From a virus (taxonomy: Duplodnaviria > Heunggongvirae > Uroviricota > Caudoviricetes), in the IMG/VR virus record IMGVR_UViG_2925914267_000008, positions 1-11,263 of that record: 11,263 bases of DNA; one strand, given 5' to 3'. Positions 1 to 11,263 of this stretch are shown here, one piece after another. The stretch's first letter is position 1. The number at the start of each line of letters is the position of its first letter. The notes under the pieces are model-generated. The model saw only the letters and a list, made by a program, of their open reading frames with translations. It searched no databases and had not been told where the DNA came from. Both the position numbers and the translations under genes were made by a program.

Positions 1-1066
1 GTGGCCCTCAGTGATACCAAACTTCGTAGCATCAATGGTAAGCCCTACAGCGGCGCACCCGAAGTCACAGATGGTGACGGTTTGAGTGTGCGTATTACTC
101 CGACTGGAACGATTACATTTCAGCATCGATATCGCTGGAACGGTAAGCCTGTTCGCCTCTCTGTCGGCCGGTATCCTGCAATGTCCCTCAAAGAGGCCCG
201 CGTTATCGTCGGTGAGATGCGCGAATTGTACCTCAAGGGGCTAAACCCTAAAAATTATTTTGCCAAAGAAGATGGCGAGCTAACGCTCAAAGAGTGCCTG
301 GATCAGTGGTGGACTAAGTATGTTGAAACGCTGAAGCCTAATACCCAGACGCTGTATAAGTCGGTTGTGTACAACACCATGTACACAGAGTTCCCGGACG
401 CACCGGTCGTAAACATCCCCGTTTCGGCTTGGGTAAGGTTCTTCGACAAGCAGGAGAAGAAAAACGGGAAAAAGGCTCGGGTGCTGCTGCTCCAACTCCG
501 ATCCGTAATGAACTGGTGTATCAGCCGTCAGCTGATCCCTTCGTGCGAGGTGCTGAAACTCAGCGTTAAGACCATCGGCAAGAAACCAGACGTTGGTAGC
601 CGGGTACTCACTTATACCGAGCTGGCAAAAATCTGGTTAGCGCTGGAAAACAATAAGGTCGTTAGCTCCAATAAGGTTCTTCACCAGTTGCTGTTGCTCT
701 GGGGTGCGCGATTATCCGAACTGCGCCTGGCCACCGCAAGTGAGTTCAATATGGGCGATCTGATTTGGACGACGCCAGCCGAGCATTCCAAAATGGGAAA
801 TGTTATTCGTCGGCCTATATTCGACCAGGTTAAACCTTACATTGAAAGGCTTCTCAATGCTGGGAACGATATTCTTTTCCCGGGTCAGGAACTGGACAAG
901 GCTATAGATCGCTCCTCAGCCAATCTCTACATGAAAAAGTTAAGGGATAAAATTGATATACCGGAATGGCGAACCCACGACTTCAGGCGTTCTCTGGTAA
1001 CGAATTTGTCAGGGGAGGGGGTTATGCCCATAAGCGCTAACTTAAGGGTTGTGGTATTACGCCTGA
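1..1066 (+). pseudogene. P4-family tyrosine integrase, 3'-truncated by IS1
   Basis: GTG start at position 1. The N-terminus (MALSDTKLRSINGKPY...GDGLSVRITPTGTITFQHRYRWNGK...GRYPAMSLKEARV) fits the arm-binding domain pattern of P4-type integrases. An HxxR-like box (THDFRR) is present near the end, but the frame runs into the IS1 inverted repeat and stops at 1069-1071 before any catalytic tyrosine. Confidence 0.8.
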
Positions 1067-1089
1067 GGTAATGACTCCAACTTATTGAT
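1067..1089. repeat. IS1 terminal inverted repeat (insB-proximal end)
   Basis: Matches the canonical IS1 terminus as recalled; it is the imperfect inverted partner of 1812-1834. Confidence 0.85.
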
Positions 1090-1585
1090 AGTGTTTTATG
1101 TTCAGATAATGCCCGATGACTTTGTCATGCAGCTCCACCGATTTTGAGAACGACAGCGACTTCCGTCCCAGCCGTGCCAGGTGCTGCCTCAGATTCAGGT
1201 TATGCCGCTCAATTCGCTGCGTATATCGCTTGCTGATTACGTGCAGCTTTCCCTTCAGGCGGGATTCATACAGCGGCCAGCCATCCGTCATCCATATCAC
1301 CACGTCAAAGGGTGACAGCAGGCTCATAAGACGCCCCAGCGTCGCCATAGTGCGTTCACCGAATACGTGCGCAACAACCGTCTTCCGGAGCCTGTCATAC
1401 GCGTAAAACAGCCAGCGCTGGCGCGATTTAGCCCCGACGTATCCCCACTGTTCGTCCATTTCCGCGCAGACGATGACGTCACTGCCCGGCTGTATGCGCG
1501 AGGTTACCGACTGCGGCCTGAGTTTTTTAAGTGACGTAAAATCGTGTTGAGGCCAACGCCCATAATGCGGGCAGTTGCCCGGCAT
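1082..1585 (-). CDS. insB: IS1 InsB reading frame (expressed as InsAB' by -1 frameshift)
   Basis: The translation ...[70 protein letters not shown]... matches IS1 InsB. It overlaps the insA 3' end in the -1 frame. Confidence 0.85.
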
Positions 1586-1779
1586 CCAACGCCATTCATG
1601 GCCATATCAATGATTTTCTGGTGCGTACCGGGTTGAGAAGCGGTGTAAGTGAACTGCAGTTGCCATGTTTTACGGCAGTGAGAGCAGAGATAGCGCTGAT
1701 GTCCGGCGGTGCTTTTGCCGTTACGCACCACCCCGTCAGTAGCTGAACAGGAGGGACAGCTGATAGAAACAGAAGCCAC
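1504..1779 (-). CDS. insA: IS1 InsA (transposition inhibitor, N-terminal part of InsAB' transposase)
   Basis: The 91-aa translation [43 protein letters not shown]... is the IS1 InsA sequence as I recall it. Confidence 0.9.
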
Positions 1780-1811
1780 TGGAGCACCTCAAAAACACCA
1801 TCATACACTAA

Positions 1812-1834
1812 ATCAGTAAGTTGGCAGCATCACC
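1812..1834. repeat. IS1 terminal inverted repeat (insA-proximal end)
   Basis: Reverse complement reads GGTGATGCTGCCAACTTACTGAT, the canonical IS1 left end. The insA start lies 55 nt inside it. Confidence 0.85.
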
Positions 1835-2907
1835 CGACTTACGGTGAGCTGAAAGTCTGTGTTGACGGAGAATTTCGGGTCAGCACATCGAAGAGTGAAG
1901 GGCGTATTGTCCGCTTTGACCTGAAGTTTGTCGAAGCGGGAGAACTCTCTTACCCCACATCAGGTGCGGCGACGGCGCAGACGCTGATGTCATCCTGTTC
2001 TGCACTGGATGACTGCATCAGTGACAGTTTCAGTAGTTTCAGTATCGATGGCGTGGCAGATTTTGTGCAGAACGATGTCGTCGGTAATGCCAGCACAATG
2101 CTTGGGTATGTTTCTGATGCGATGAAAGTGGTGGATTCTGCCGTATCGGATGCCGCCAGGCTGTTGCAGGGGGATATCTCGGTACTTCTGCCGCCGCCAT
2201 CGTCAGGCAAAAATTTCGTTGAGCAGGTGCAGAAAATGTGGCGTACCGGGAAACGCCTTTATGGTAACGCCAGCGACCTGGTCACCATGATCAAAACGCT
2301 TTCCGGTGTCAGCCTCGGCAGCGATCTGCAACCGCGCGGCGTCTGGAAAACGGACAGTAAAACCACCGCCACGGCGACGCAGCAGCGTAACGTGGTTGCC
2401 AGCACCCTTCGTATGACCGCAATCAGCGAAGCGGCGTATGCCGTTACCCGATTGCCTGCGCCAACAACTTCTGCGGTGATGCAGAATGCCGCAGTGGGGC
2501 AGTCAACAACACCCGCGCAGAGCTCCGGCTGGCCTGCCGTCACGCATCCGGTGCTGAACAATGCACCGGCGGTGAAAAACACGGTTGACCTGCCAACGTG
2601 GGAAGAACTGACCGACATTCGCGACACACTGAATATGGCAATTGATAAGGAGTTGTCCCGTACAACCAGTGATGCGCTGTTTCTGGCGCTGCGCCGGGTG
2701 AAAGCAGATCTGAATGCGGATATCAACACGCGCCTTGAACAGTCTGCTCGGATCATTCAGCGCACGCCGGATGAGGTTTTACCCGCGCTGGTGCTGGCGG
2801 CGACCTGGTTTGATAACGCGGCGCGTGACGCGGACATTATCCGGCGTAATGCCATTACGCATCCCGGCTTTGTGCCGGTGATCCCTCTGAAGGTGCCAGT
2901 GCAATGA
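1835..2907 (+). pseudogene. Mu-type DNA circulation protein (N/gp43-like), 5'-truncated at the IS1 junction
   Basis: Frame 1 is open from the IS1 boundary at 1835 through the stop at 2905-2907. The first ATG is at 1987, with no plausible start or RBS before it. It sits directly upstream of the gp44/P-like gene, as in the Mu order N-P-Q. The family call rests on synteny and general resemblance, not on a search. Confidence 0.55.
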
Positions 2908-3983
2908 ACGACAATGTCACGCTACGGGTAAATGGCCGGGAGTGGAATGGCTGGACATCGGTGCGCATCGGTGCCGGTATTGAACGGCTGGCGCGGGATT
3001 TCAGCGTGGAGATCACCCGCCAGTGGCCGGGAGATGAGGGTATCACCACGCTTCAGCCGCGCATTAAAAATGGTTCAAAAGTGGAAGTGCTGATTGGTGA
3101 TGAGCTGGTGATCACCGGCTGGGTGGAGGCGACCCCCGTTCGTTACGATGCCCGTTCGGTCAGCACCGGTATTGCCGGACGTAGTCTGACTGCTGACCTG
3201 ATTGACTGTGCAGCCGAACCGACACAGTTTAACGGACGATCGCTGGTACAGATTGCGCAGGCGCTTGCTGCGCCTTTCGGCATTGAGGTGGTGAACAACG
3301 GTGCGCAGTCGGGTGTTATTCCTGACGTCCAGCCCGATCACGGTGAAACGGTGATTGAGGTAATCAACAAAATACTCGGTCAGCAGCAGGCACTGGCTTA
3401 CGACGACCCGCACGGCAGGCTGGTGATTGGTGGTATTGGCTCAACGCGGGCACATACTGCGCTGGTACTCGGGGAAAACATCCTTTCCTGCGATACGGAG
3501 AAGAGTATCCGGGAGCGGTTTTCAGTTTACCAGGTGGCGGGGCAGCGTGCCGGAAACGACGATGATTTCGGTGAGGCCACCACCACCGCGCTGCGGGCCC
3601 GCACAGAGGACGCATTTATTGCCCGTTACCGTCCGATGTATATCAGGCAGACAGGGCAGGCTACGGGGGCAGGCTGTATTGCCCGTGCGGACTTTGAAGC
3701 CCGACAACGGGCGGCGCGGACGGATGAAACCACCTATGTGGTGCAGGGCTGGCGACAGGGTAACGGTACGCTGTGGCAGCCCAACCAGCGGGTGATTGTC
3801 TTTGATCCGGTCTGTGGTTTCGACAATACCGAACTGCTTGTTTCGGAAGTCACGTTTACTCAGGACCAGAACGGCACCCTGACGGAAATCCGTGTCGGCC
3901 CGCCTGATGCTTATCTGCCTGAACCCGAAGCCCCCGGCGCGCGGAAAAAGAAAAAAGCCAGAGTACAGGAGGACCCGTTCTGA
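2904..3983 (+). CDS. Mu gp44 (P)-like baseplate hub protein
   Basis: 359-aa ORF whose start overlaps the upstream stop (ATGA at 2904-2907). Size, position and sequence character fit the Mu P/gp44 baseplate family. Confidence 0.75.
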   Translation: MNDNVTLRVNGREWNGWTSVRIGAGIERLARDFSVEITRQWPGDEGITTLQPRIKNGSKVEVLIGDELVITGWVEATPVRYDARSVSTGIAGRSLTADLIDCAAEPTQFNGRSLVQIAQALAAPFGIEVVNNGAQSGVIPDVQPDHGETVIEVINKILGQQQALAYDDPHGRLVIGGIGSTRAHTALVLGENILSCDTEKSIRERFSVYQVAGQRAGNDDDFGEATTTALRARTEDAFIARYRPMYIRQTGQATGAGCIARADFEARQRAARTDETTYVVQGWRQGNGTLWQPNQRVIVFDPVCGFDNTELLVSEVTFTQDQNGTLTEIRVGPPDAYLPEPEAPGARKKKKARVQEDPF

Positions 3984-4531
3984 TGAGGACGATTGAAGCC
4001 ATGCAGCGACAACTCCTCGGCCTGATTGGGCGGGCCGTGGTGAAAAGCATCAGTGCCGCCACGAAATGTCAGACCGTGGATGTGTTCCTGATTGCCGGTG
4101 AACCCAAAGCCGGGGTTGAACATCTTGAACCCTACGGTTTTACCGCAAGGGCAAACAGCGGTGCGGAAGCGGTGGTGTTGTTTCCGGATGGCGACCGTTC
4201 TCATGCGGTGGTTGTTACGGTGTCGGACCGTCGCTACCGCCTGAAAGGGCTGCAGACGGGTGAGGTGGCTGTCTATGACGATCAGGGGCAGTCCGTGACG
4301 CTGACCCGGGAGGGGATCGTGGTGGACGGTGCAGGTAAAACGATCACGTTTCGCAATGCACCTGAAGCACGTTTTGAAATGGACCTAGAAGTGACAGGAC
4401 AGGTGAAAGACCTGTGCGACTCCGGCGGCACCACCATGTCAGCGATGCGGCTTGCCTATAACGGGCATAGTCACAGAGAGAACGGTCAGGGCAGTAACAC
4501 CGACAAACCGGATAAAGCGATGGAGGCATGA
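3983..4531 (+). CDS. Mu gp45-like baseplate spike/assembly protein (gpV-type)
   Basis: 182-aa ORF whose start overlaps the upstream stop (TGATG at 3981-3985). Size and position fit Mu gp45. Confidence 0.75.
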   Translation: MRTIEAMQRQLLGLIGRAVVKSISAATKCQTVDVFLIAGEPKAGVEHLEPYGFTARANSGAEAVVLFPDGDRSHAVVVTVSDRRYRLKGLQTGEVAVYDDQGQSVTLTREGIVVDGAGKTITFRNAPEARFEMDLEVTGQVKDLCDSGGTTMSAMRLAYNGHSHRENGQGSNTDKPDKAMEA

Positions 4532-4956
4532 TGGAACTGTGGCTGACGGTGAACGGTAAACGCACCTGCGCCAGCGCACCGCTGGATCCGCTGACCCGCG
4601 CCGTGGTGATTTCCCTGTTTACCTGGCGGCGGGCGGAGCCTGATGACAACGCCGACGTCCCGATGGGATGGTGGGGGGATACCTGGCCTGCGGTACAGAA
4701 TGACCGTTACGGCTCCCGACTGTGGCTGCTTCAGCGCAGCAAACTGACCAATCAGCTGGTGCAGACGGTAAGGGGGTATATCCGCGAATGCCTGCAATGG
4801 ATGATTGATGATGGCGTGGTGTCCCGTATTGATCTGGATATCCGCCGCACCGGGATTAATGAACTGGGTAACAGTATCACTCTCTGGCGTCGTGACGGAC
4901 CGGTAATGATTTCTTTTGATGATCTGTGGAGTGCGATAACGCATGGCGGACAGTGA
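4528..4956 (+). CDS. Mu gp46-like baseplate protein (GP46 family)
   Basis: 142-aa ORF with ATGA overlap to the upstream gene. Size and synteny fit Mu gp46. Confidence 0.75.
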   Translation: MMELWLTVNGKRTCASAPLDPLTRAVVISLFTWRRAEPDDNADVPMGWWGDTWPAVQNDRYGSRLWLLQRSKLTNQLVQTVRGYIRECLQWMIDDGVVSRIDLDIRRTGINELGNSITLWRRDGPVMISFDDLWSAITHGGQ

Positions 4957-6001
4957 ATTTCAGCGCCCGACGCTGGCAGAAAATATCAGTATGCTCCGTA
5001 ACGATTTATTCGCCAGGCTGGACGTCAGCGACACGCTCCGGCGCATGGATGAAGACGTGCGGGCAAAGGTGTATGCGGCGGCGCTGCATACGGTTTACGG
5101 GTACATCGATTATCTGGCAATGAACATGCTGCCTGACCTGTGCGATGAGTCCTGGCTGGCGCGACATGCTGCGATGAAACGGTGTCCGCGCAAGGGGGCC
5201 ACGGCTGCCAGCGGGTATATGCGCTGGGAAGGTGTCAGCGATGGCCTGAAGGTGACCGCCGGGAGTGTTATTCAGCGCGATGACCTGGTTCAGTACACGG
5301 CAACTGCTGATGCAACCAGCTCCGGTGGTGTCCTGCGCGTGCCGATCACCTGCTCAACTACAGGCGTGGTCGGTAACGCTGACGACGGTACGGCATTAAT
5401 CCTGGTCACGCCGGTGAATGGTCTGCCGTCTTCCGGCGTGGCAGATACACTGACAGGTGGATTTGATACTGAAGAGCTGGAAACGTGGCGCGCCCGCGTC
5501 ATTGAGCGGTATTACTGGACGCCTCAGGGCGGGGCTGACGGGGACTATGTCGTCTGGGCTAAAGAAGTACCCGGCATTACCCGCGCATGGACATACCGAC
5601 ACTGGATGGGAACGGGGACTGTCGGTGTGATGATTGCCAGCAGTGACCTGATTAATCCCATTCCGGAAGAGTCAACGGAAACGGCGGCAAGACAACATAT
5701 CGGGCCACTGGCCCCGGTGGCAGGCTCTGATTTGTATGTATTCAGGCCGGTGGCGCATAAAGTGGATTTTCATATCCGCGTGACGCCGGACACACCGGAA
5801 ATACGGGCTGCCATCACCGCCGAGTTGCGTTCGTTCCTGCTGCGTGATGGTTATCCGCAGGGAGAACTGAAGGTGTCACGTATCAGTGAAGCGATTTCCG
5901 GTACGAACGGGGAATACAGCCATCAGTTGCTTGCCCCGGCGGACAATATCTCCATTGCAAAAAATGAGCTGGCGGTTCTGGGGACGATTTCATGGACGTG
6001 A
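4943..6001 (+). CDS. Mu gp47-like baseplate wedge protein (Baseplate_J family)
   Basis: 352-aa ORF overlapping the previous gene by 14 nt. Size and synteny fit Mu gp47 / P2 gpJ-type proteins. Confidence 0.8.
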
Positions 6002-6576
6002 CAAACGATGATTATATCCGTCTGTTGTCGGCACTGTTGCCGCCCGGTCCGGCGTGGTCAGTCAGCGATCCGGCGATTGCCGGTGCGGCACCGTCATTAA
6101 CCCGCGTTCATCAGCGTGCGGATGCCCTGATGCGGGAGCTGGATCCGCGCACCACCACTGAACTGATAAACCGCTGGGAGCGTCTGTGCGGTCTGCCGGA
6201 TGAATGTATTCCCGCAGGGACACAGACCCTTCGCCAGCGTCAGCAACGGCTGGATGCGAAGGTTAATCTGGCGGGCGGCATCAATGAGGATTTTTATCTT
6301 GCACAGCTTGCTGCCCTGGGCAGACCAGACGCCACTATCACGCGATACGATAAAAGCACGTTCACCTGCTCATCGGCCTGTACTGACGCAGTGAATGCGC
6401 CGGAATGGCGGTATTACTGGCAGGTCAACATGCCAGCCGCCACCAACACCACCTGGATGACATGTGGCGATCCCTGTGATTCCGCACTGCGTATCTGGGG
6501 CGACACCGTTGTCGAGTGCGTGCTTAACAAACTCTGCCCTTCGCATACCTACGTAATTTTTAAATATCCGGAGTAA
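5992..6576 (+). CDS. Mu gp48-like tail protein (DUF2313 / YmfQ-like)
   Basis: 194-aa ORF overlapping the previous gene by 10 nt. It resembles the YmfQ/gp48 family found just upstream of tail-fibre genes in Mu-like and e14-like tails. Confidence 0.75.
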
Positions 6577-6579
6577 TCC

Positions 6580-7092
6580 ATGCATCGTATAGACACGAAA
6601 ACCGCGCAGAAGGATAAGTTCGGCGCGGGTAAGAACGGTTTTACCCGTGGTAACCCCCAGACCGGCACACCTGCCACCGATCTGGATGATGACTACTTTG
6701 ACATGTTGCAGGAAGAACTTTGTAGCGTTGTTGAGGCATCCGGTGCCAGTCTGGAGAAGGCGCGGCACGACCAGCTGCTTACCGCACTTCGTGCGCTGCT
6801 GTTAAGCCGCAAGAATCCGTTTGGCGATATCAAATCGGATGGCACTGTGCAAACGGCTCTCGAAAACCTTCAATTGCGAGAATCATTCACAGGTGTGGTT
6901 GGTCAGGCCGTTAACCAGAAAATGAGCGTGGCAATAGCGTCGGCATCAGCAACATTCACCGCTGACCAGGTTATTGTTGGTGAGTCATTATCTGGCAAGC
7001 AGTACCGTGTAAGTTCGGTAAGCGAAACTATCAACCTCACCACGACTGGGGCGGGCGGGATGGATACAGGAGCAGCCCCTGCCAGTGGTTGA
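6580..7092 (+). CDS. Phage tail fibre protein, N-terminal part, ending at an in-frame TGA
   Basis: The start [47 protein letters not shown] is a conserved tail-fibre N-terminus. The ATG is 4 nt after the gp48-like stop, with GGAG upstream. The frame ends at TGA 7090-7092. Confidence 0.7.
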
Positions 7093-7626
7093 GTTGCTAT
7101 TTACCTTATTTACAACCCAACGACCAACACCTCAGCATTACTTGGTGTTAACACGACAACCGTCGTTGCGCCCACAGTCTACGGCGGTGCAAACATGCCA
7201 GCGGGATATACGGCGAGCGCACTCGTATCCGTCTGGAGAACAACAAGCGGCTCTTTGCTTCTGAATGGGTACCAGCGAGGTCGAAAATTTTGCATCCCGC
7301 GTGTAGATGTACTGACCACAAGCAGTAACCCAGGACCATACTCACCAATCCCTCTTAGCGCAGCCGTACCGCTAAACGCTATAGCAGCGAGTGGTTACGC
7401 ATTCTGTAACTCAGGCTCTGGTTCTGGGTTTGCGGTTTTGTCTGTCGGGTCTGATGCAAATGGGCTTGGGTATTTTCAGGTGTATGCCGGGCTGGTTGGT
7501 TCGCTAGGGAGCGATATCTATTTTGAGAATACCCTCGCTGAACCTCAAAAACTTTACTACACGTTTACCTGGACAACGCCAGCAGTGTCAAATGCCACCA
7601 TTGGGATAAGCGGTTATACGATCTAA
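7093..7626 (+). pseudogene. Tail fibre distal part, in the same frame as 6580..7092 across one TGA
   Basis: Same frame as the upstream tail-fibre ORF, with no further stop from 7093 to 7626. The 34 codons between the TGA and the first ATG (7195) read as Thr/Asn/Ser/Val/Gly-rich, fibre-like sequence, and there is no RBS ahead of 7195. Confidence 0.45.
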
Positions 7627-7636
7627 GGAGTGAATT

Positions 7637-7804
7637 ATGTCTGTTGTATATGTGCAGTTCTCTGATGAGAAAGAAACAGAAATTGTCTCTGTTTTTGCAT
7701 CTCCGGCCGACCCGGATTACTACCAGTTTTTGGGGGAGGTAGAGGGGGATGATGAGCGGCTTAAAATCTTTTGGAAGCAATTCCCTCAGCATGCCGTAGG
7801 TTGA
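7637..7804 (+). CDS. Hypothetical small protein (55 aa), not in the ORF track
   Basis: ATG at 7637 is preceded by AAGGAG at 7625-7630 with 6-nt spacing. Translation: MSVVYVQFSDEKETEIVSVFASPADPDYYQFLGEVEGDDERLKIFWKQFPQHAVG. It sits directly after the tail fibre, where assembly chaperones or cargo genes usually lie. I do not recognise a family. Confidence 0.4.
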   Translation: MSVVYVQFSDEKETEIVSVFASPADPDYYQFLGEVEGDDERLKIFWKQFPQHAVG

Positions 7805-7994
7805 TTGGATAATAAGTCGCTAGGTGAGAACTGGCGGATAATTTTTCTAGATAAGTTTTTAGCAACCAGCATTCCTGTTTTTTATATCCAGGATTTTGGT
7901 TTACAGTACTTATTTTTAACTGTATTGAGGATGGCGAAAACAGATTGAAAATTACATCCAGATCACCCAATCGATAATCAACCATTATAAAAAA

Positions 7995-8014
7995 GGCTCC
8001 CTTTTTAGGGAGCC
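7995..8014. terminator. Intrinsic terminator hairpin between convergent genes
   Basis: Perfect 8-bp stem GGCTCCCT / AGGGAGCC with a TTTT loop. On the minus strand it is followed by TTTTTTATAA, 9 nt downstream of the acyltransferase stop. On the plus strand it is preceded by an A-run, with only a weak T-tract after it. Confidence 0.65.
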
Positions 8015-8022
8015 TTGTGTGG

Positions 8023-9273
8023 TTATATTTTTGCTTTGCTGATAAAATTATCTAGGGTTTTTCCTACGGTGCGGCTAAGTATCACTGATTTTTTCTCTAT
8101 TAATTGATAAAATATCATTGAACCAATTAAAGAAAGAGTGACGAATACTAAAAAGGAAGCAATGTATGCTAAATAAACGTTATTTGTATGAATATATACA
8201 TATAGGTTTATTGGCATTATTGCAGATGAAAGAACTAACCAGTGAACAAGGTATAAAGAGAAAGAAATTTTCCCAAAAAATTGAACAAGTTTAGTGGATA
8301 GGAAATCGCGAATGTATCCTCTGGACATTACTAGAATTAGCAATAATATTGCACCGACACCACGTAAAAACTCGTATGGGTGGTAAGGGAACATCCCAGG
8401 AATCGATAAGTCTTGCATGTTTATTAATGGGGCAACAAAATAGTTCCCTGGTATAAAAATCCAACCCCAGGGATAGAATACCGGGCAACTTTGAAGTATC
8501 ACTATAGCTAATATCATTAGCAAAGTAATAACGTATTTTTCTTTGTTGTTAAATAAATTGCTTGTTTTTTCGTCGGCAAACAAGATGGATATCCATGCGC
8601 CAATGAGAAGAAAAAACACATAATATCCGTAACTAAAGATAGTAAATAAAAATAATAAAAGAATGCCATGCCTTGAGTTATTTCTTCCTACCTGAGCAAC
8701 AATTAATAGTAACAGCGAGCCCATAAACTCAGTCGACATTGACCATATTACAGGGTTAAGAAATCTAGTTGAAAAATCTGTGGTATATAGCGTAAGAATG
8801 CCTTGCTTTATTACTTCATCGAAAGCTACATTTTCATCGTGATCATAACGAAATCCAGATTTTACTAAGATATATCCAATAATACAGGAAGCAAATACAG
8901 GAACACCAAGTCGAATAAAACGACGTATTAATGATGCTATAAATGTTGTATTTGCTTTGAAGGCGCCAAGAAGAATTGCGCCAGATAAGATGAAAAAAAC
9001 TATAGTAGCAAAATTACCATTGATAGTGAATACGAATGGTGTCGTTTCAGTAAATTCGTAGAATTTTGAAAGCCAATAAGGGAATGCATCTGGGTAGTGT
9101 GAAAGCATAAAAAGCTTTGTTTCACCAAAAAAATGACCATAAGCAACAATTATAGCCATTAGTCCGCGTAACCCATCAAAATATAGGATTCTGTTCTTTT
9201 TTTGTTCCAATTTATTGAACCTCATCATTTCAAAATAGTGAGCAATGATAGTGTTAAGAGTGTAGTAAAGCAA
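8023..9273 (-). CDS. Acyltransferase family 3 integral membrane protein (Oac/OafA-like O-acetyltransferase candidate)
   Basis: The N-terminal motif RILYFDGLRGLMAIIVAYGHFFGE and the later FFILSGAIL segment are typical of the acyltransferase-3 family. The protein is very hydrophobic with many predicted helices. The gene is AT-rich (roughly 30% GC) against GC-rich neighbours. The start is uncertain: TTG at 9273 with GAAGG upstream, or ATG at 9228 or 9225. Confidence 0.85.
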   Translation of the reverse strand: MLYYTLNTIIAHYFEMMRFNKLEQKKNRILYFDGLRGLMAIIVAYGHFFGETKLFMLSHYPDAFPYWLSKFYEFTETTPFVFTINGNFATIVFFILSGAILLGAFKANTTFIASLIRRFIRLGVPVFASCIIGYILVKSGFRYDHDENVAFDEVIKQGILTLYTTDFSTRFLNPVIWSMSTEFMGSLLLLIVAQVGRNNSRHGILLLFLFTIFSYGYYVFFLLIGAWISILFADEKTSNLFNNKEKYVITLLMILAIVILQSCPVFYPWGWIFIPGNYFVAPLINMQDLSIPGMFPYHPYEFLRGVGAILLLILVMSRGYIRDFLSTKLVQFFGKISFSLYLVHWLVLSSAIMPINLYVYIHTNNVYLAYIASFLVFVTLSLIGSMIFYQLIEKKSVILSRTVGKTLDNFISKAKI

Positions 9274-9396
9274 TGCCTTCTGGAATCGAAGTTAAAACAA
9301 CGGAGCTTAAATTAGTTGAAGTGAGATTTGCTAATAAAGGTAATAAATTCAATCAATTACTTCTTGAGGGCGTATTGGTGTTAAGAAGATTTTAAC

Positions 9397-9405
9397 ATTG
9401 TATCA
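9397..9405 (-). promoter_or_regulatory. Possible extended -10 element (TGATACAAT on minus strand) upstream of the acyltransferase
   Basis: TGnTACAAT motif about 125 nt upstream of the acyltransferase start in AT-rich DNA. No clear -35. This is a sequence-pattern guess only. Confidence 0.2.
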
Positions 9406-10232
9406 CATACCACGGGGGCATTCTGATGAAATCAGAAAAATAGACAGGGTAATAGCTATCGATTGATGATGGTGGTTGCTATGCTTCATATAGAGTTTCC
9501 GATACTATCACGCACATTATTAATGATAGCAGAACGGTGGAGTTTAATGGTTGGCCAAGCCTTGTTGAACAATGGTTAATCATGCTGTTTTAATATACCT
9601 TCTTTGGAGAAAAATGCTAACAACTCCAACGTGCATTGCCCGAGATTGGCTGTAACCATAATAATTTTATGGAGTTTATTGAATAAACCCGAGTTAGTAG
9701 ACAGGATGACGCCTACCGGAACACCCGTTATGCGATGCGGACGCTGTCCGGCATACCCAGCACGGTCATCCGGTTTAGCGCTTTGACCATCGCCGTTTCT
9801 GCCACTGAACGACGGTGATAACCCACTTTCTTTTTCCAAACATAATTGCTGGATAGGGTCAGGGTTATTATGATGCTTGGAATTATCGAACGCTGCCGCA
9901 GAATGTTAGAGAACGGAGCAATCCGGCAACGTGATCGGTGTGGGGGTAAAGACGATTTATAAATACTTTCCTGTCACAAGTCCAGCGCGTAATGCCAGTT
10001 CCCGAGTGTAGGTATGATCATGAAAAAGTGGTGCGCACCTAAATATCTTTAATACAGGCGTAGGATGCCATGCATTAGGATCGGGTTAAACAGGGATGTT
10101 TACGTTCTGGAAAACTGCCCGCAGATAGCCGGCGTGATCTAGAATGATTTTTGTGTACATATATGTGTACTGTACAAAAGAAGATTTGGCTTTTAATTTC
10201 AATAAAAACAATAAATTGAATTGTTTTTAAAA

Positions 10233-10255
10233 TATATCCATTTAACTAAGAGGAC
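10233..10255 (-). tRNA. argW: tRNA-Arg (argW) 5' fragment, first 23 nt only
   Basis: The minus strand reads GTCCTCTTAGTTAAATGGATATA, identical to the first 23 nt of E. coli argW as I recall it, and lies 75 nt downstream of yfdC as expected. The next bases (TTTTAAAAACAATTC...) are AT-rich and cannot form the rest of a tRNA. Confidence 0.55.
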
Positions 10256-10330
10256 AATGCGGCATGAGTATACCCGCTAATGGAGTGCGGGGTAAGTACG
10301 CTGCCGCTCGATTGCTTAAACCCTCGCCAT

Positions 10331-11263
10331 TTATGCCGGGTTTTTATAATTTTTCTTAATGTTTTCCGCACGTTCTGCTTTTTGGCGTGCTTCTGCTTTA
10401 CGCTTATTGCTCATGTCGTTACGAATCTGTGCATGACTCATTAACGCGAAGATAAAGGTGCCGCCGCAGATGTTCCCCGCTAAAGTAGGTAGTGCGAAGG
10501 GCCAGATGAAATCGCTCCAGTGCAGCGTACCGTTAAACACCAGATAGAGGATTTCAACAGAACCGACCACGATATGGGTGGTGTCACCCAGGGCAATAAG
10601 CCAGGTCATCAATATAATCACCACAATCTTTGCCGCACCCGCTGCAGGAAACATCCAAACCATAGTGGCGATCAGCCAGCCGGAAATGATCGCGTTGGCA
10701 AACATCTCGCTGGGGGTGTTCTTCATCACATCCATGCCGATTTTGACAAATGCATCGCGAGTTTCTTCATTGAAGATAGGCATATATTCAAATGCCCACG
10801 CCGCAATACCTGTCCCGAGAATATTACCCAGCAGCACGACGCCCCATAACCGTATAAGTAAGCCGACGTTGCTCATTGTCGGTTTTTGCATGACGGGTAG
10901 TACCGCAGTCACGGTATTTTCGGTAAATAATTGCTGGCGGGCCATAATGACGATAATAAAACCAAAGGTATAACCGAGATTCTCCAGCAAGAAGCTGCCC
11001 GGCACACCTTCCAGTTCGACTTGAAATATCCCTTTTGCCAGTAACGAAGCGCCCATCGACAGACCCGCCGCAATGGCTGACCACAGTAGCGCCATTGCGT
11101 CGCGTTCCAGCTCTTTTTCACCATCCTGGCGGATATGCTCATGAATTGCCATCGCCCGGGAGGGGAGTCGGTCTTCATCTATTTCTATTTTTTTGCCGCG
11201 CTCTTTTTCTTCGCTCTCAACTTCAATTTCGTCGCTGTGTTGATCAATTTTGTCGTTGTCCAT
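10331..11263 (-). CDS. yfdC: Formate/nitrite transporter family inner membrane protein YfdC
   Basis: The 310-aa translation (MDNDKIDQHSDEIEVESEEKERGKK...NYKNPA) matches E. coli YfdC as recalled. It is a full-length ORF whose start codon is the last three bases of the window. Confidence 0.9.
   Translation of the reverse strand: MDNDKIDQHSDEIEVESEEKERGKKIEIDEDRLPSRAMAIHEHIRQDGEKELERDAMALLWSAIAAGLSMGASLLAKGIFQVELEGVPGSFLLENLGYTFGFIIVIMARQQLFTENTVTAVLPVMQKPTMSNVGLLIRLWGVVLLGNILGTGIAAWAFEYMPIFNEETRDAFVKIGMDVMKNTPSEMFANAIISGWLIATMVWMFPAAGAAKIVVIILMTWLIALGDTTHIVVGSVEILYLVFNGTLHWSDFIWPFALPTLAGNICGGTFIFALMSHAQIRNDMSNKRKAEARQKAERAENIKKNYKNPA

Follow-up and report, generated by a model that had tools for sequence, protein, structure and literature searches.

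A candidate surface-polysaccharide O-acyltransferase gene retained in a decayed SfV-type prophage at the argW site of Escherichia coli

The window analysed here is one stretch of 11,263 nucleotides (positions 1 to 11,263 of the IMG/VR virus record IMGVR_UViG_2925914267_000008, Caudoviricetes), and the element under study is the acyltransferase gene on its minus strand, which lies close to the attachment end of an SfV-type prophage (Table 1). We consider it fairly probable that this gene encodes a lysogenic-conversion enzyme, namely an inner-membrane O-acyltransferase that consists of an acyltransferase-3 (AT3) domain only, is carried as a self-contained moron in a slot for O-antigen modification genes, and acts on a surface polysaccharide, most likely the O-antigen of lipopolysaccharide (LPS). 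This reading is carried by what we observed of the gene: its protein family and catalytic motifs, its architecture and location, the purifying selection on it, its survival in decayed prophages, and its relatives in polysaccharide clusters. A sequence-only reading of the same DNA had proposed a candidate surface-polysaccharide O-acetyltransferase, and this proposal is supported by the PF01757 match, the polysaccharide-cluster relatives and the slot.

The protein matches the PF01757 (Acyl_transf_3) profile, a check that the sequence-only reading had suggested, with 76.2 bits (E = 3e-21, compared to a cutoff of 31), and residues 15-374 cover profile positions 2-325 of 326. It also matches phrog_3333 ('O-acetyltransferase', E = 9e-20); a named NCBIfam family for the protein was not found. 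Comparison with a 90%-identical copy of the gene borne by a P2-type E. coli prophage gives a ratio of non-synonymous to synonymous substitution rates (dN/dS) of 0.07 at a dS of 0.72, which we read as strong purifying selection. Because of the profile match and the low dN/dS, we take the open reading frame (ORF) to be real and not a chance ORF. The R-x(n)-DGLRG signature noted in the sequence-only reading is indeed present in the translated ORF (NRILYFDGLRG...H), as is a WSxSxE motif. We scored motif conservation on an alignment of 18 sequences with members down to 21% identity. In R15-X10-H26, the histidine is invariant and the arginine is at least 90% conserved; F72, F73, S76 and G77 of FFILSG are invariant, as are both arginines of the RXXR motif (R97-F-I-R100) and G204, which we assume to be the counterpart of OafA G202. 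In the AT3 carbohydrate acetyltransferases that have been characterised, R/K-X10-H in the first transmembrane helix (TMH1), FFXISG, RXXR and a glycine in TMH6 are shared or essential, the histidine of R/K-X10-H being essential in OafA and RXXR in Oac, OafA and OafB (Pearson et al., PMC7448272).

An AlphaFold2 model of the protein (predicted local distance difference test, pLDDT, 85.5; predicted template-modelling score, pTM, 0.86) consists of about 10 long helices with no additional domain, and the hydropathy profile agrees, so that the transmembrane (TM) topology looked for in the sequence-only reading is recovered as about 10 predicted TM helices. We know of no solved structure of an AT3 protein, and a fold search of BFVD returned one protein without a name. 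The 395 amino acids (aa) hold a single Pfam domain, with no SGNH/GDSL Pfam match and no 11th TM helix; as modelled, the protein is thus AT3-only like Oac, and unlike the AT3-SGNH fusions OafA, OafB and OatA. In the mechanism that we propose by analogy to AT3 enzymes of known function, cytoplasmic acyl-coenzyme A, most likely acetyl-coenzyme A, would enter a pore formed by the TM helices, where the Arg and His of TMH1 and the RXXR arginines would handle the acyl group. On the periplasmic side, this group would then be transferred to a sugar of a surface polysaccharide that is being assembled, the LPS O-antigen being the likeliest. The surface antigenicity of the lysogen would be altered, and the receptor for the phage's own distal tail-fibre domain would probably be masked, which would result in superinfection exclusion. 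Four parts of this picture are inferred: that the lysogen expresses the gene, which acyl donor is used, which sugar accepts the group, and that exclusion results.

The location of the gene is that of serotype-conversion cargo. The order of features is tail fibre, 55-aa ORF, acyltransferase and attR, and this order agrees with the sequence-only description of a gene convergent to the tail-fibre operon at the att end of the prophage, since positions 10233-10330 are the argW attR stretch and yfdC lies beyond. As in SfII_25 of Shigella phage SfII and in Sf6 oac, the gene sits between tail fibre and att, is convergent, and has a terminator; the upstream region of the window gene is conserved. The earlier statement that this slot carries O-antigen modification cassettes in related phages is corroborated by SfII_25, which occupies the same slot of a 98%-identical backbone. 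The GC content of the coding sequence (CDS) is 33.4% (28.5% at third codon positions), that of positions 7805-9600 is 34.1%, and that of the tail module (1835-7626) is 56.4%, close to the AT-rich gene of about 30% GC among GC-rich tail genes that had been described. Of the features expected of a moron, the deviant GC content (33% vs. 56%) and a strong terminator of its own are thus present, and a promoter of its own is a candidate only.

The state of the surrounding prophage, compared across related assemblies, further bears on the role of the gene. In the window, IS1 lies between the 3'-truncated integrase gene (1-1029) and a DNA-circulation gene that is 5'-truncated (1835-2907) and encodes 442 aa at full length in L011, an arrangement that suggests loss of most of the prophage through a deletion associated with IS1. 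The 37 bases between the end of the integrase homology and the end of IS1 (1030-1066) have no assignment. In the tail-fibre gene, a TGG codon has changed to the nonsense codon TGA (7090-7092), and the same fibre is split (170 + 143 aa) in assemblies L017 and L018 but is an intact 348-aa gene in L012-L015; the nonsense codon therefore marks a sublineage. From these lesions, we regard the prophage copy in the window as a dead remnant. E. coli assemblies L012-L015 carry an identical acyltransferase at the same site in a fuller prophage, with sheath, tube, tape measure and the intact fibre; of 3,830 positions in this region, 4 are not as in the window. In a further E. coli assembly, L001 (11682-11819), an independent deletion joins the 3' end of the integrase gene to window position 7530 inside the fibre gene; this assembly keeps the 55-aa ORF, the acyltransferase, and the integrase catalytic-region codons that are absent from the window. 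The acyltransferase ORF is intact, with at least 99% identity, in all three structural states (L012-L015, the IS1-deleted window, and L001). Together with the dN/dS of 0.07, this is the pattern expected of a cargo gene under host selection. Retention of the gene by the host, in a prophage that otherwise decayed, points to a fitness benefit, and the gene would now serve the bacterium.

Few proteins are closely related to the acyltransferase. A word-indexed search of 5.8 billion proteins identified only seven clusters with more than 55% identity, followed by a drop to 31%. In an exhaustive HMMER scan of 1.84 billion representatives, one cluster scored 717 bits and the next 183 bits, with eight at E <= 1e-30; in this set, the window protein, the other E. 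coli copies and the members from Pantoea, Duffyella and Leminorella form a single 50%-identity cluster, and the nearest outgroups are metagenomic singletons without a name that give no functional lead. A scan of the GTDB species representatives with the clade's two best motifs gave 124 pattern matches, of which 0 were true relatives, and megablast and blastn searches found the cassette neither in 5,426 complete RefSeq E. coli genomes (distant mode included) nor in 50,697 phage records. In E. coli, the gene occurs in two kinds of prophage. One is the SfV-type prophage at argW; the other, of P2 type, is located downstream of rplS and has the gene flanked by its fibre and sheath genes, a position that we take to be the Z/fun moron slot of P2. 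The uncharacterised chromosomal members, from Pantoea stewartii, Duffyella gerundensis and Leminorella grimontii, have 55-61% identity over the full length, the same length, and all motifs invariant, and are genes of biosynthetic clusters, in contrast to the prophage moron of the window. These clusters encode Wzm/Wzt-type ABC exporters, a GT2 glycosyltransferase, WavE, nucleotidyltransferases and an EcbF/BcbF capsule-biosynthesis phosphatase, and the one in P. stewartii adjoins galE, galF and wzx. The sequence-only reading had held that peptidoglycan or other non-LPS acyltransferases as closest homologues would speak against its proposal; because the nearest non-phage homologues are surface-polysaccharide cluster genes, with no peptidoglycan enzymes among them, the peptidoglycan objection is answered. 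Besides Wzm/Wzt, GT2, WavE and the EcbF/BcbF-type phosphatase, the P. stewartii cluster (L009:11-11085) holds a pair of nucleotidyltransferase-like proteins, one of which has a fused kinase-like domain, and two large proteins without a family (597 and 346 aa). It has the look of an uncharacterised locus for an ABC-exported polysaccharide that may contain phosphate.

The maximal ORF (8023..9273, minus strand) has 416 codons counted from the first TTG. This 416-aa reading was dropped, as a 1-nt indel separates the two homologous E. coli copies (window and P2-borne) immediately 5' of the ATG at 9228. A GAGG (9220-9223) is conserved 9 nt ahead of the codon at 9210, which is TTG in the window and ATG in the P2-borne copy. 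Because of the indel and the conserved GAGG, the true CDS is probably either 8023-9210, with 395 aa, or 8023-9228, with 401 aa. The shorter protein is deposited verbatim as 'acyltransferase family protein [Escherichia coli]' (P0013) and occurs on 97 contigs, one of them of 5.0 Mb. About 330 nt upstream of the gene are conserved across both phage backbones, and the candidate sigma-70 promoter in this region matches 8 of 12 consensus positions. Phase variation of the Dam/OxyR type, as in gtr and OafB operons, was considered and dropped: the conserved upstream 490 nt contain 0 GATC sites. An A7 tract on the minus strand (9197-9203, codons 3-5), just past the start codon, is conserved in both E. 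coli copies and is probably too short for slipped-strand switching.

Table 1. Features of the 11,263-nucleotide window, with coordinates counted from its first letter.
Feature	Position	Strand	Remarks
Prophage integrase gene, 3'-truncated	1..1029	+	C-terminal catalytic region, present in L001, missing
IS1	1067..1834	-	768 bp, both terminal inverted repeats; InsA 1504-1779, InsB 1082-1585
SfV/SfII-type (Mu-like) baseplate module	1835..6576	+	98% identity to SfV, SfII, SfI and SfIV; Pfam Gp44/45/46/J/48; 5'-truncated in the DNA-circulation gene
Chimeric tail-fibre gene, nonsense-inactivated	6580..7626	+	N-terminal 128 aa SfII_23-like (80%); distal part BcepMu/YeP1-type
55-aa ORF, phrog_20339	7637..7804	+	PHROG E = 2e-16; dN/dS 0.14; takes the place of the SfII Caudo_TAP fibre-assembly (chaperone) gene
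Intrinsic terminator	7993..8016	-	10-bp stem, 6 GC pairs, T-run; 6 nt past the acyltransferase stop
AT3-only acyltransferase CDS	8023..9210	-	395 aa from TTG 9210; a start at ATG 9228 would give 401 aa
Leader/regulatory region travelling with the acyltransferase gene	9211..9444	-	77% identity to the P2-borne copy; includes GAGG 9220-9223
Candidate sigma-70 promoter	9245..9273	-	TTGCTT-N17-TATCAT, weak -35; inferred from alignment; conserved in SfV-type and P2-type copies
IS5-family transposase remnant in the 1-kb acyltransferase-attR spacer	9675..9849		About 200 E. coli genomes have copies with 82% identity
attR core	10233..10330	-	Chromosomal yfdC-argW spacer and first 23 nt of tRNA-Arg-CCT (10255->10233)
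Chromosomal flank, yfdC	10331..11263	-	Formate/nitrite-transporter family gene

The company in which the acyltransferase occurs raises an alternative that refines the lysogenic-conversion reading and is compatible with it: the distal fibre domain, the 55-aa ORF and an acyl-modifying enzyme may form a portable unit for receptor recognition and receptor masking, in which the substrate of the enzyme is the receptor of the fibre. The distal fibre part of about 255 residues starts at 'ENLQLRE' (about position 6858) and has 69% aa identity to the fibre of the P2-type E. coli prophage and 40-50% identity to its counterparts in phages of Burkholderia, Yersinia, Ralstonia and Paraburkholderia. Homologues of the 55-aa ORF (35-46% identity) directly follow the fibre gene in YeP1, BcepMu, vB_E433, vB_PL1, IPK and Raharianne. 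An AT3 gene follows the fibre tip and small ORF in both E. coli backbones (SfV-type and P2-type), BcepMu (gp53), vB_E433, vB_PL1 and YeP1, and a gene for an SGNH/GDSL protein does so in vB_E159 and Raharianne; neither kind of enzyme was found after the fibre tip in RS-CA1, vB_YenM_06.16-1 and IPK, and these three backbones count against the coupling. The AT3 genes of BcepMu, YeP1, vB_E433 and vB_PL1 are usually convergent to the fibre gene, and their products have at most 27% local identity to the window protein (BLASTP non-significant); vB_E433 and vB_PL1 encode Oac-like enzymes (about 30% identity, E about 1e-30), and the products of BcepMu and YeP1 are each distinct. The AT3 proteins come from at least four unrelated-looking lineages, and the slot has therefore been refilled repeatedly. 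By a crude estimate of the background, which covers not only temperate phages, the four lineages together match at most 87 of the 50,697 phage records.

This pattern hints that the fibre class and the acyl modification of its receptor may be functionally linked. On the other side, the post-fibre region is a general moron hot-spot for any fibre type, the phage records are phylogenetically non-independent, and the background spans more than temperate phages. The possibility that fibre tip, ORF and AT3 gene moved recently as one block was dropped, as dS between the SfV-type and P2-type E. coli cassettes differs several-fold among the segments (at least 2.8 for the fibre tip, 1.7 for the small ORF, and 0.24-1.3 for the AT3 gene), and the cassettes are mosaics. 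On balance, we regard a portable unit of this kind as a tentative option with roughly half the standing of the lysogenic-conversion reading itself. Slightly more doubtful is its widest form, a coupled 'bind receptor / mask receptor' module across beta- and gamma-proteobacterial temperate myoviruses (SfV-, P2- and BcepMu-type phages, YeP1 and the Burkholderia vB_ phages) with the enzyme slot refilled to suit the local host glycan. If the unit were real, the fibre class would be predicted to recognise an acylatable LPS sugar, and phage receptors and AT3 substrates could be inferred from each other. We found no description of a linkage between fibre and acyltransferase in the accessible literature, in which the BcepMu acyltransferase is mentioned only as a potential pathogenesis factor (PMC2628397).

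Several loci of this fibre class show further features. In BcepMu (NC_005882 35264-35428; L023:2501-2668), an unannotated 56-aa ORF with 41% identity (E about 1e-12) to the 55-aa ORF lies between gp52 (fibre) and gp53 (O-acetyltransferase). In Yersinia phage YeP1, QCW23369 (L022:4275-5390), annotated as 'hypothetical protein', is a PF01757 AT3 protein (88 bits) encoded co-directionally with the fibre and the small ORF. The locus of Burkholderia phage vB_PL1 (L027:4372-6109) encodes an Oac-like AT3 protein followed by a separate 199-aa SGNH/GDSL hydrolase, a pair that would correspond to a two-domain AT3-SGNH acetyltransferase in split form, and has an ISL3 transposase gene just 5' of the fibre gene. 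A GDSL/SGNH-domain protein fills the AT3 slot in Ralstonia phage Raharianne (gp50-gp51, L024:3501-4794), where the small-ORF homology of gp50 is fused to a DUF4376 domain, and in vB_E159 (L028:4596-5672).

A second alternative concerns the acceptor. The enzyme may be an active AT3 protein that modifies another envelope glycan, such as the LPS core, the enterobacterial common antigen, a K capsule or periplasmic glucans. The acceptor substrate is not inferable from sequence, as the sequence-only reading had cautioned, and AT3-only enzymes act on many glycans (review PMC9558356). The clusters of the chromosomal relatives hold the capsule-biosynthesis phosphatase and teichoic/galactan-type exporters. 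The fibre class occurs in phages of both beta- and gamma-proteobacteria, and its receptor could for this reason be a conserved one, for example the LPS core, and not the hypervariable O-antigen. However, neighbours such as WavE and Wzm/Wzt are just as typically found in O-polysaccharide loci, and the characterised cargo of this backbone and slot modifies the O-antigen (PMC9558356). We rate an acceptor other than the O-antigen as unlikely, at about a third of the weight given to the lysogenic-conversion reading with an O-antigen acceptor.

Several observations weigh against the lysogenic-conversion reading. The capsule-type genes in the Pantoea-type clusters could mean that the acceptor is capsule-like or teichoic-like rather than O-antigen. 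The candidate promoter is weak by consensus, and a consensus promoter scanner did not flag positions 9245..9273. The top three Foldseek matches in the PDB were all to human HGSNAT, and were weak (template-modelling scores 0.37-0.41, E 0.26-0.41), although HGSNAT as top match fits a proposed common fold (PMC12423673). Finally, pairwise comparison detects no similarity of the window protein to the O-antigen acetyltransferases that have been characterised: with SfII_25, BLASTP gave E = 0.54 and hhalign a probability of 0.6%, and with Sf6 Oac the identity is 22% across 192 aa at E = 0.002, with 26% as the hhalign probability. That the gene is a non-functional passenger decaying with its prophage is very improbable: the surrounding prophage is defective (IS1, truncated integrase, fibre nonsense codon, IS5 remnant), but the ORF is full length with all catalytic motifs and the dN/dS given above, about 100 contigs encode the protein in identical form, and the gene has outlasted two deletion histories that are independent of each other.

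At the attachment end, positions 10233-10330 correspond to the stretch annotated as attR or as 'duplication due to insertion' in argW-integrated Stx2a phages, and positions 10233-10255 are exactly the first 23 nt of tRNA-Arg-CCT (argW), after which the tRNA gene is interrupted. An intact argW had been expected and is not present in the window, and Rfam and tRNA scans of the window gave no match. Because only the first 23 nt of argW adjoin yfdC, we conclude that this prophage type and the Stx2a phages with the same attR recombine in the 5' part of the tRNA gene; the junction that restores argW is expected outside the window. We searched the spacer between the leader region and attR (9445-10232) for a hidden gene, a small RNA or gtr remnants, and found only the IS5-family fragment and the att arm. 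This arm on the phage side (10152-10232) is matched with 81-85% identity by what O157:H7 genomes, O111 genomes and the Stx2a phage Stx2_IB14005 have at this site, and contains near-palindromic TGTACA repeats, possibly sites for integrase or integration host factor. In the P2-type E. coli prophage (L002:15488-16825), a 445-aa DUF4062 protein is encoded between baseplate gene V and tail gene S, which looks like another cargo gene and is possibly a defence gene.

In Shigella and Salmonella, O-antigen acetyltransferases borne by phages alter the serotype, the epitopes for vaccines and the susceptibility to phages, and O-acetyl groups of E. coli whose genes lie outside the O-antigen cluster are common, mostly without an assigned gene. 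The acyltransferase described here belongs to an uncharacterised, very rare AT3 lineage and is a candidate for such unassigned O-acetylation in the lineages that carry it; it also brings to three the AT3 solutions, unrelated in sequence, that occupy this slot in the SfV/SfII phage family.

CPS-53 (KpLE1) of E. coli K-12 is, as we take it, a decayed prophage at yfdC-argW that keeps gtrABS next to tail-fibre remnants, and the yfdC-argW site is confirmed for the window. CPS-53, however, carries glucosylation genes where the window has an acyltransferase, and differs in its integrase and, presumably, in the opposite orientation of the prophage; in the window, argW is cut after nt 23. Among phages with the SfV backbone, cargo in this slot modifies the O-antigen, with gtr genes in SfV, SfI and SfIV, and an acyltransferase together with gtrII in SfII (PMC9558356). 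SfII_25 shares with the window gene the backbone (baseplate 98%), the slot right after the fibre genes, the convergent orientation, a terminator of its own, and PF01757. SfII_25 is presumably OacD, which 6-O-acetylates GlcNAc; oacD is placed on SfII in the review PMC9558356. SfII_25 has 349 aa vs. 395 aa of the window protein, and in SfII it is followed by gtrII-gtrB-gtrA, attP and int, with an integrase that differs from that of the window, which has no gtr remnants. The fibre accessory gene differs as well (the Caudo_TAP gene SfII_24 vs. the 55-aa ORF), and so do the fibre tips.

Oac (OacA) of Sf6, the paradigm of serotype conversion and superinfection immunity (PMC9558356), is likewise AT3-only with the same motif set, is encoded convergently to a receptor-binding protein gene with its own promoter and terminator, and adjoins int/att. 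Its 333 aa, podovirus backbone and known substrate set it apart from the 395-aa window protein, and a tblastn search of the phage records with the window protein did not recover Sf6. The Salmonella AT3-SGNH proteins OafA and OafB share R/K-X10-H, FFxxSG and RXXR with the window protein, which lacks their 11th TM helix and C-terminal SGNH domain and has no upstream GATC cluster. The nearest phage-borne relative among the 50,697 phage records is ORF081 of Pantoea phage PA-1 (26% identity over 402 aa, hhalign probability 99.4%), which has a similar length and follows tail fibre/spike genes near an integrase, but falls outside the clade, is co-directional with the tail genes, and is uncharacterised. 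Membership in the Oac/OafA family, as claimed in the sequence-only reading, thus stands at the level of the AT3 superfamily, but not as close similarity to Oac, OacD or OafA, and by these comparisons we place the window protein outside the Oac, OacD and OafA/B subfamilies. Compared with these systems, the class of mechanism is already known, and what this case adds is the retention by the host, the isolated clade with polysaccharide-cluster relatives, and the recurrent arrangement of fibre tip, small ORF and acyl enzyme.

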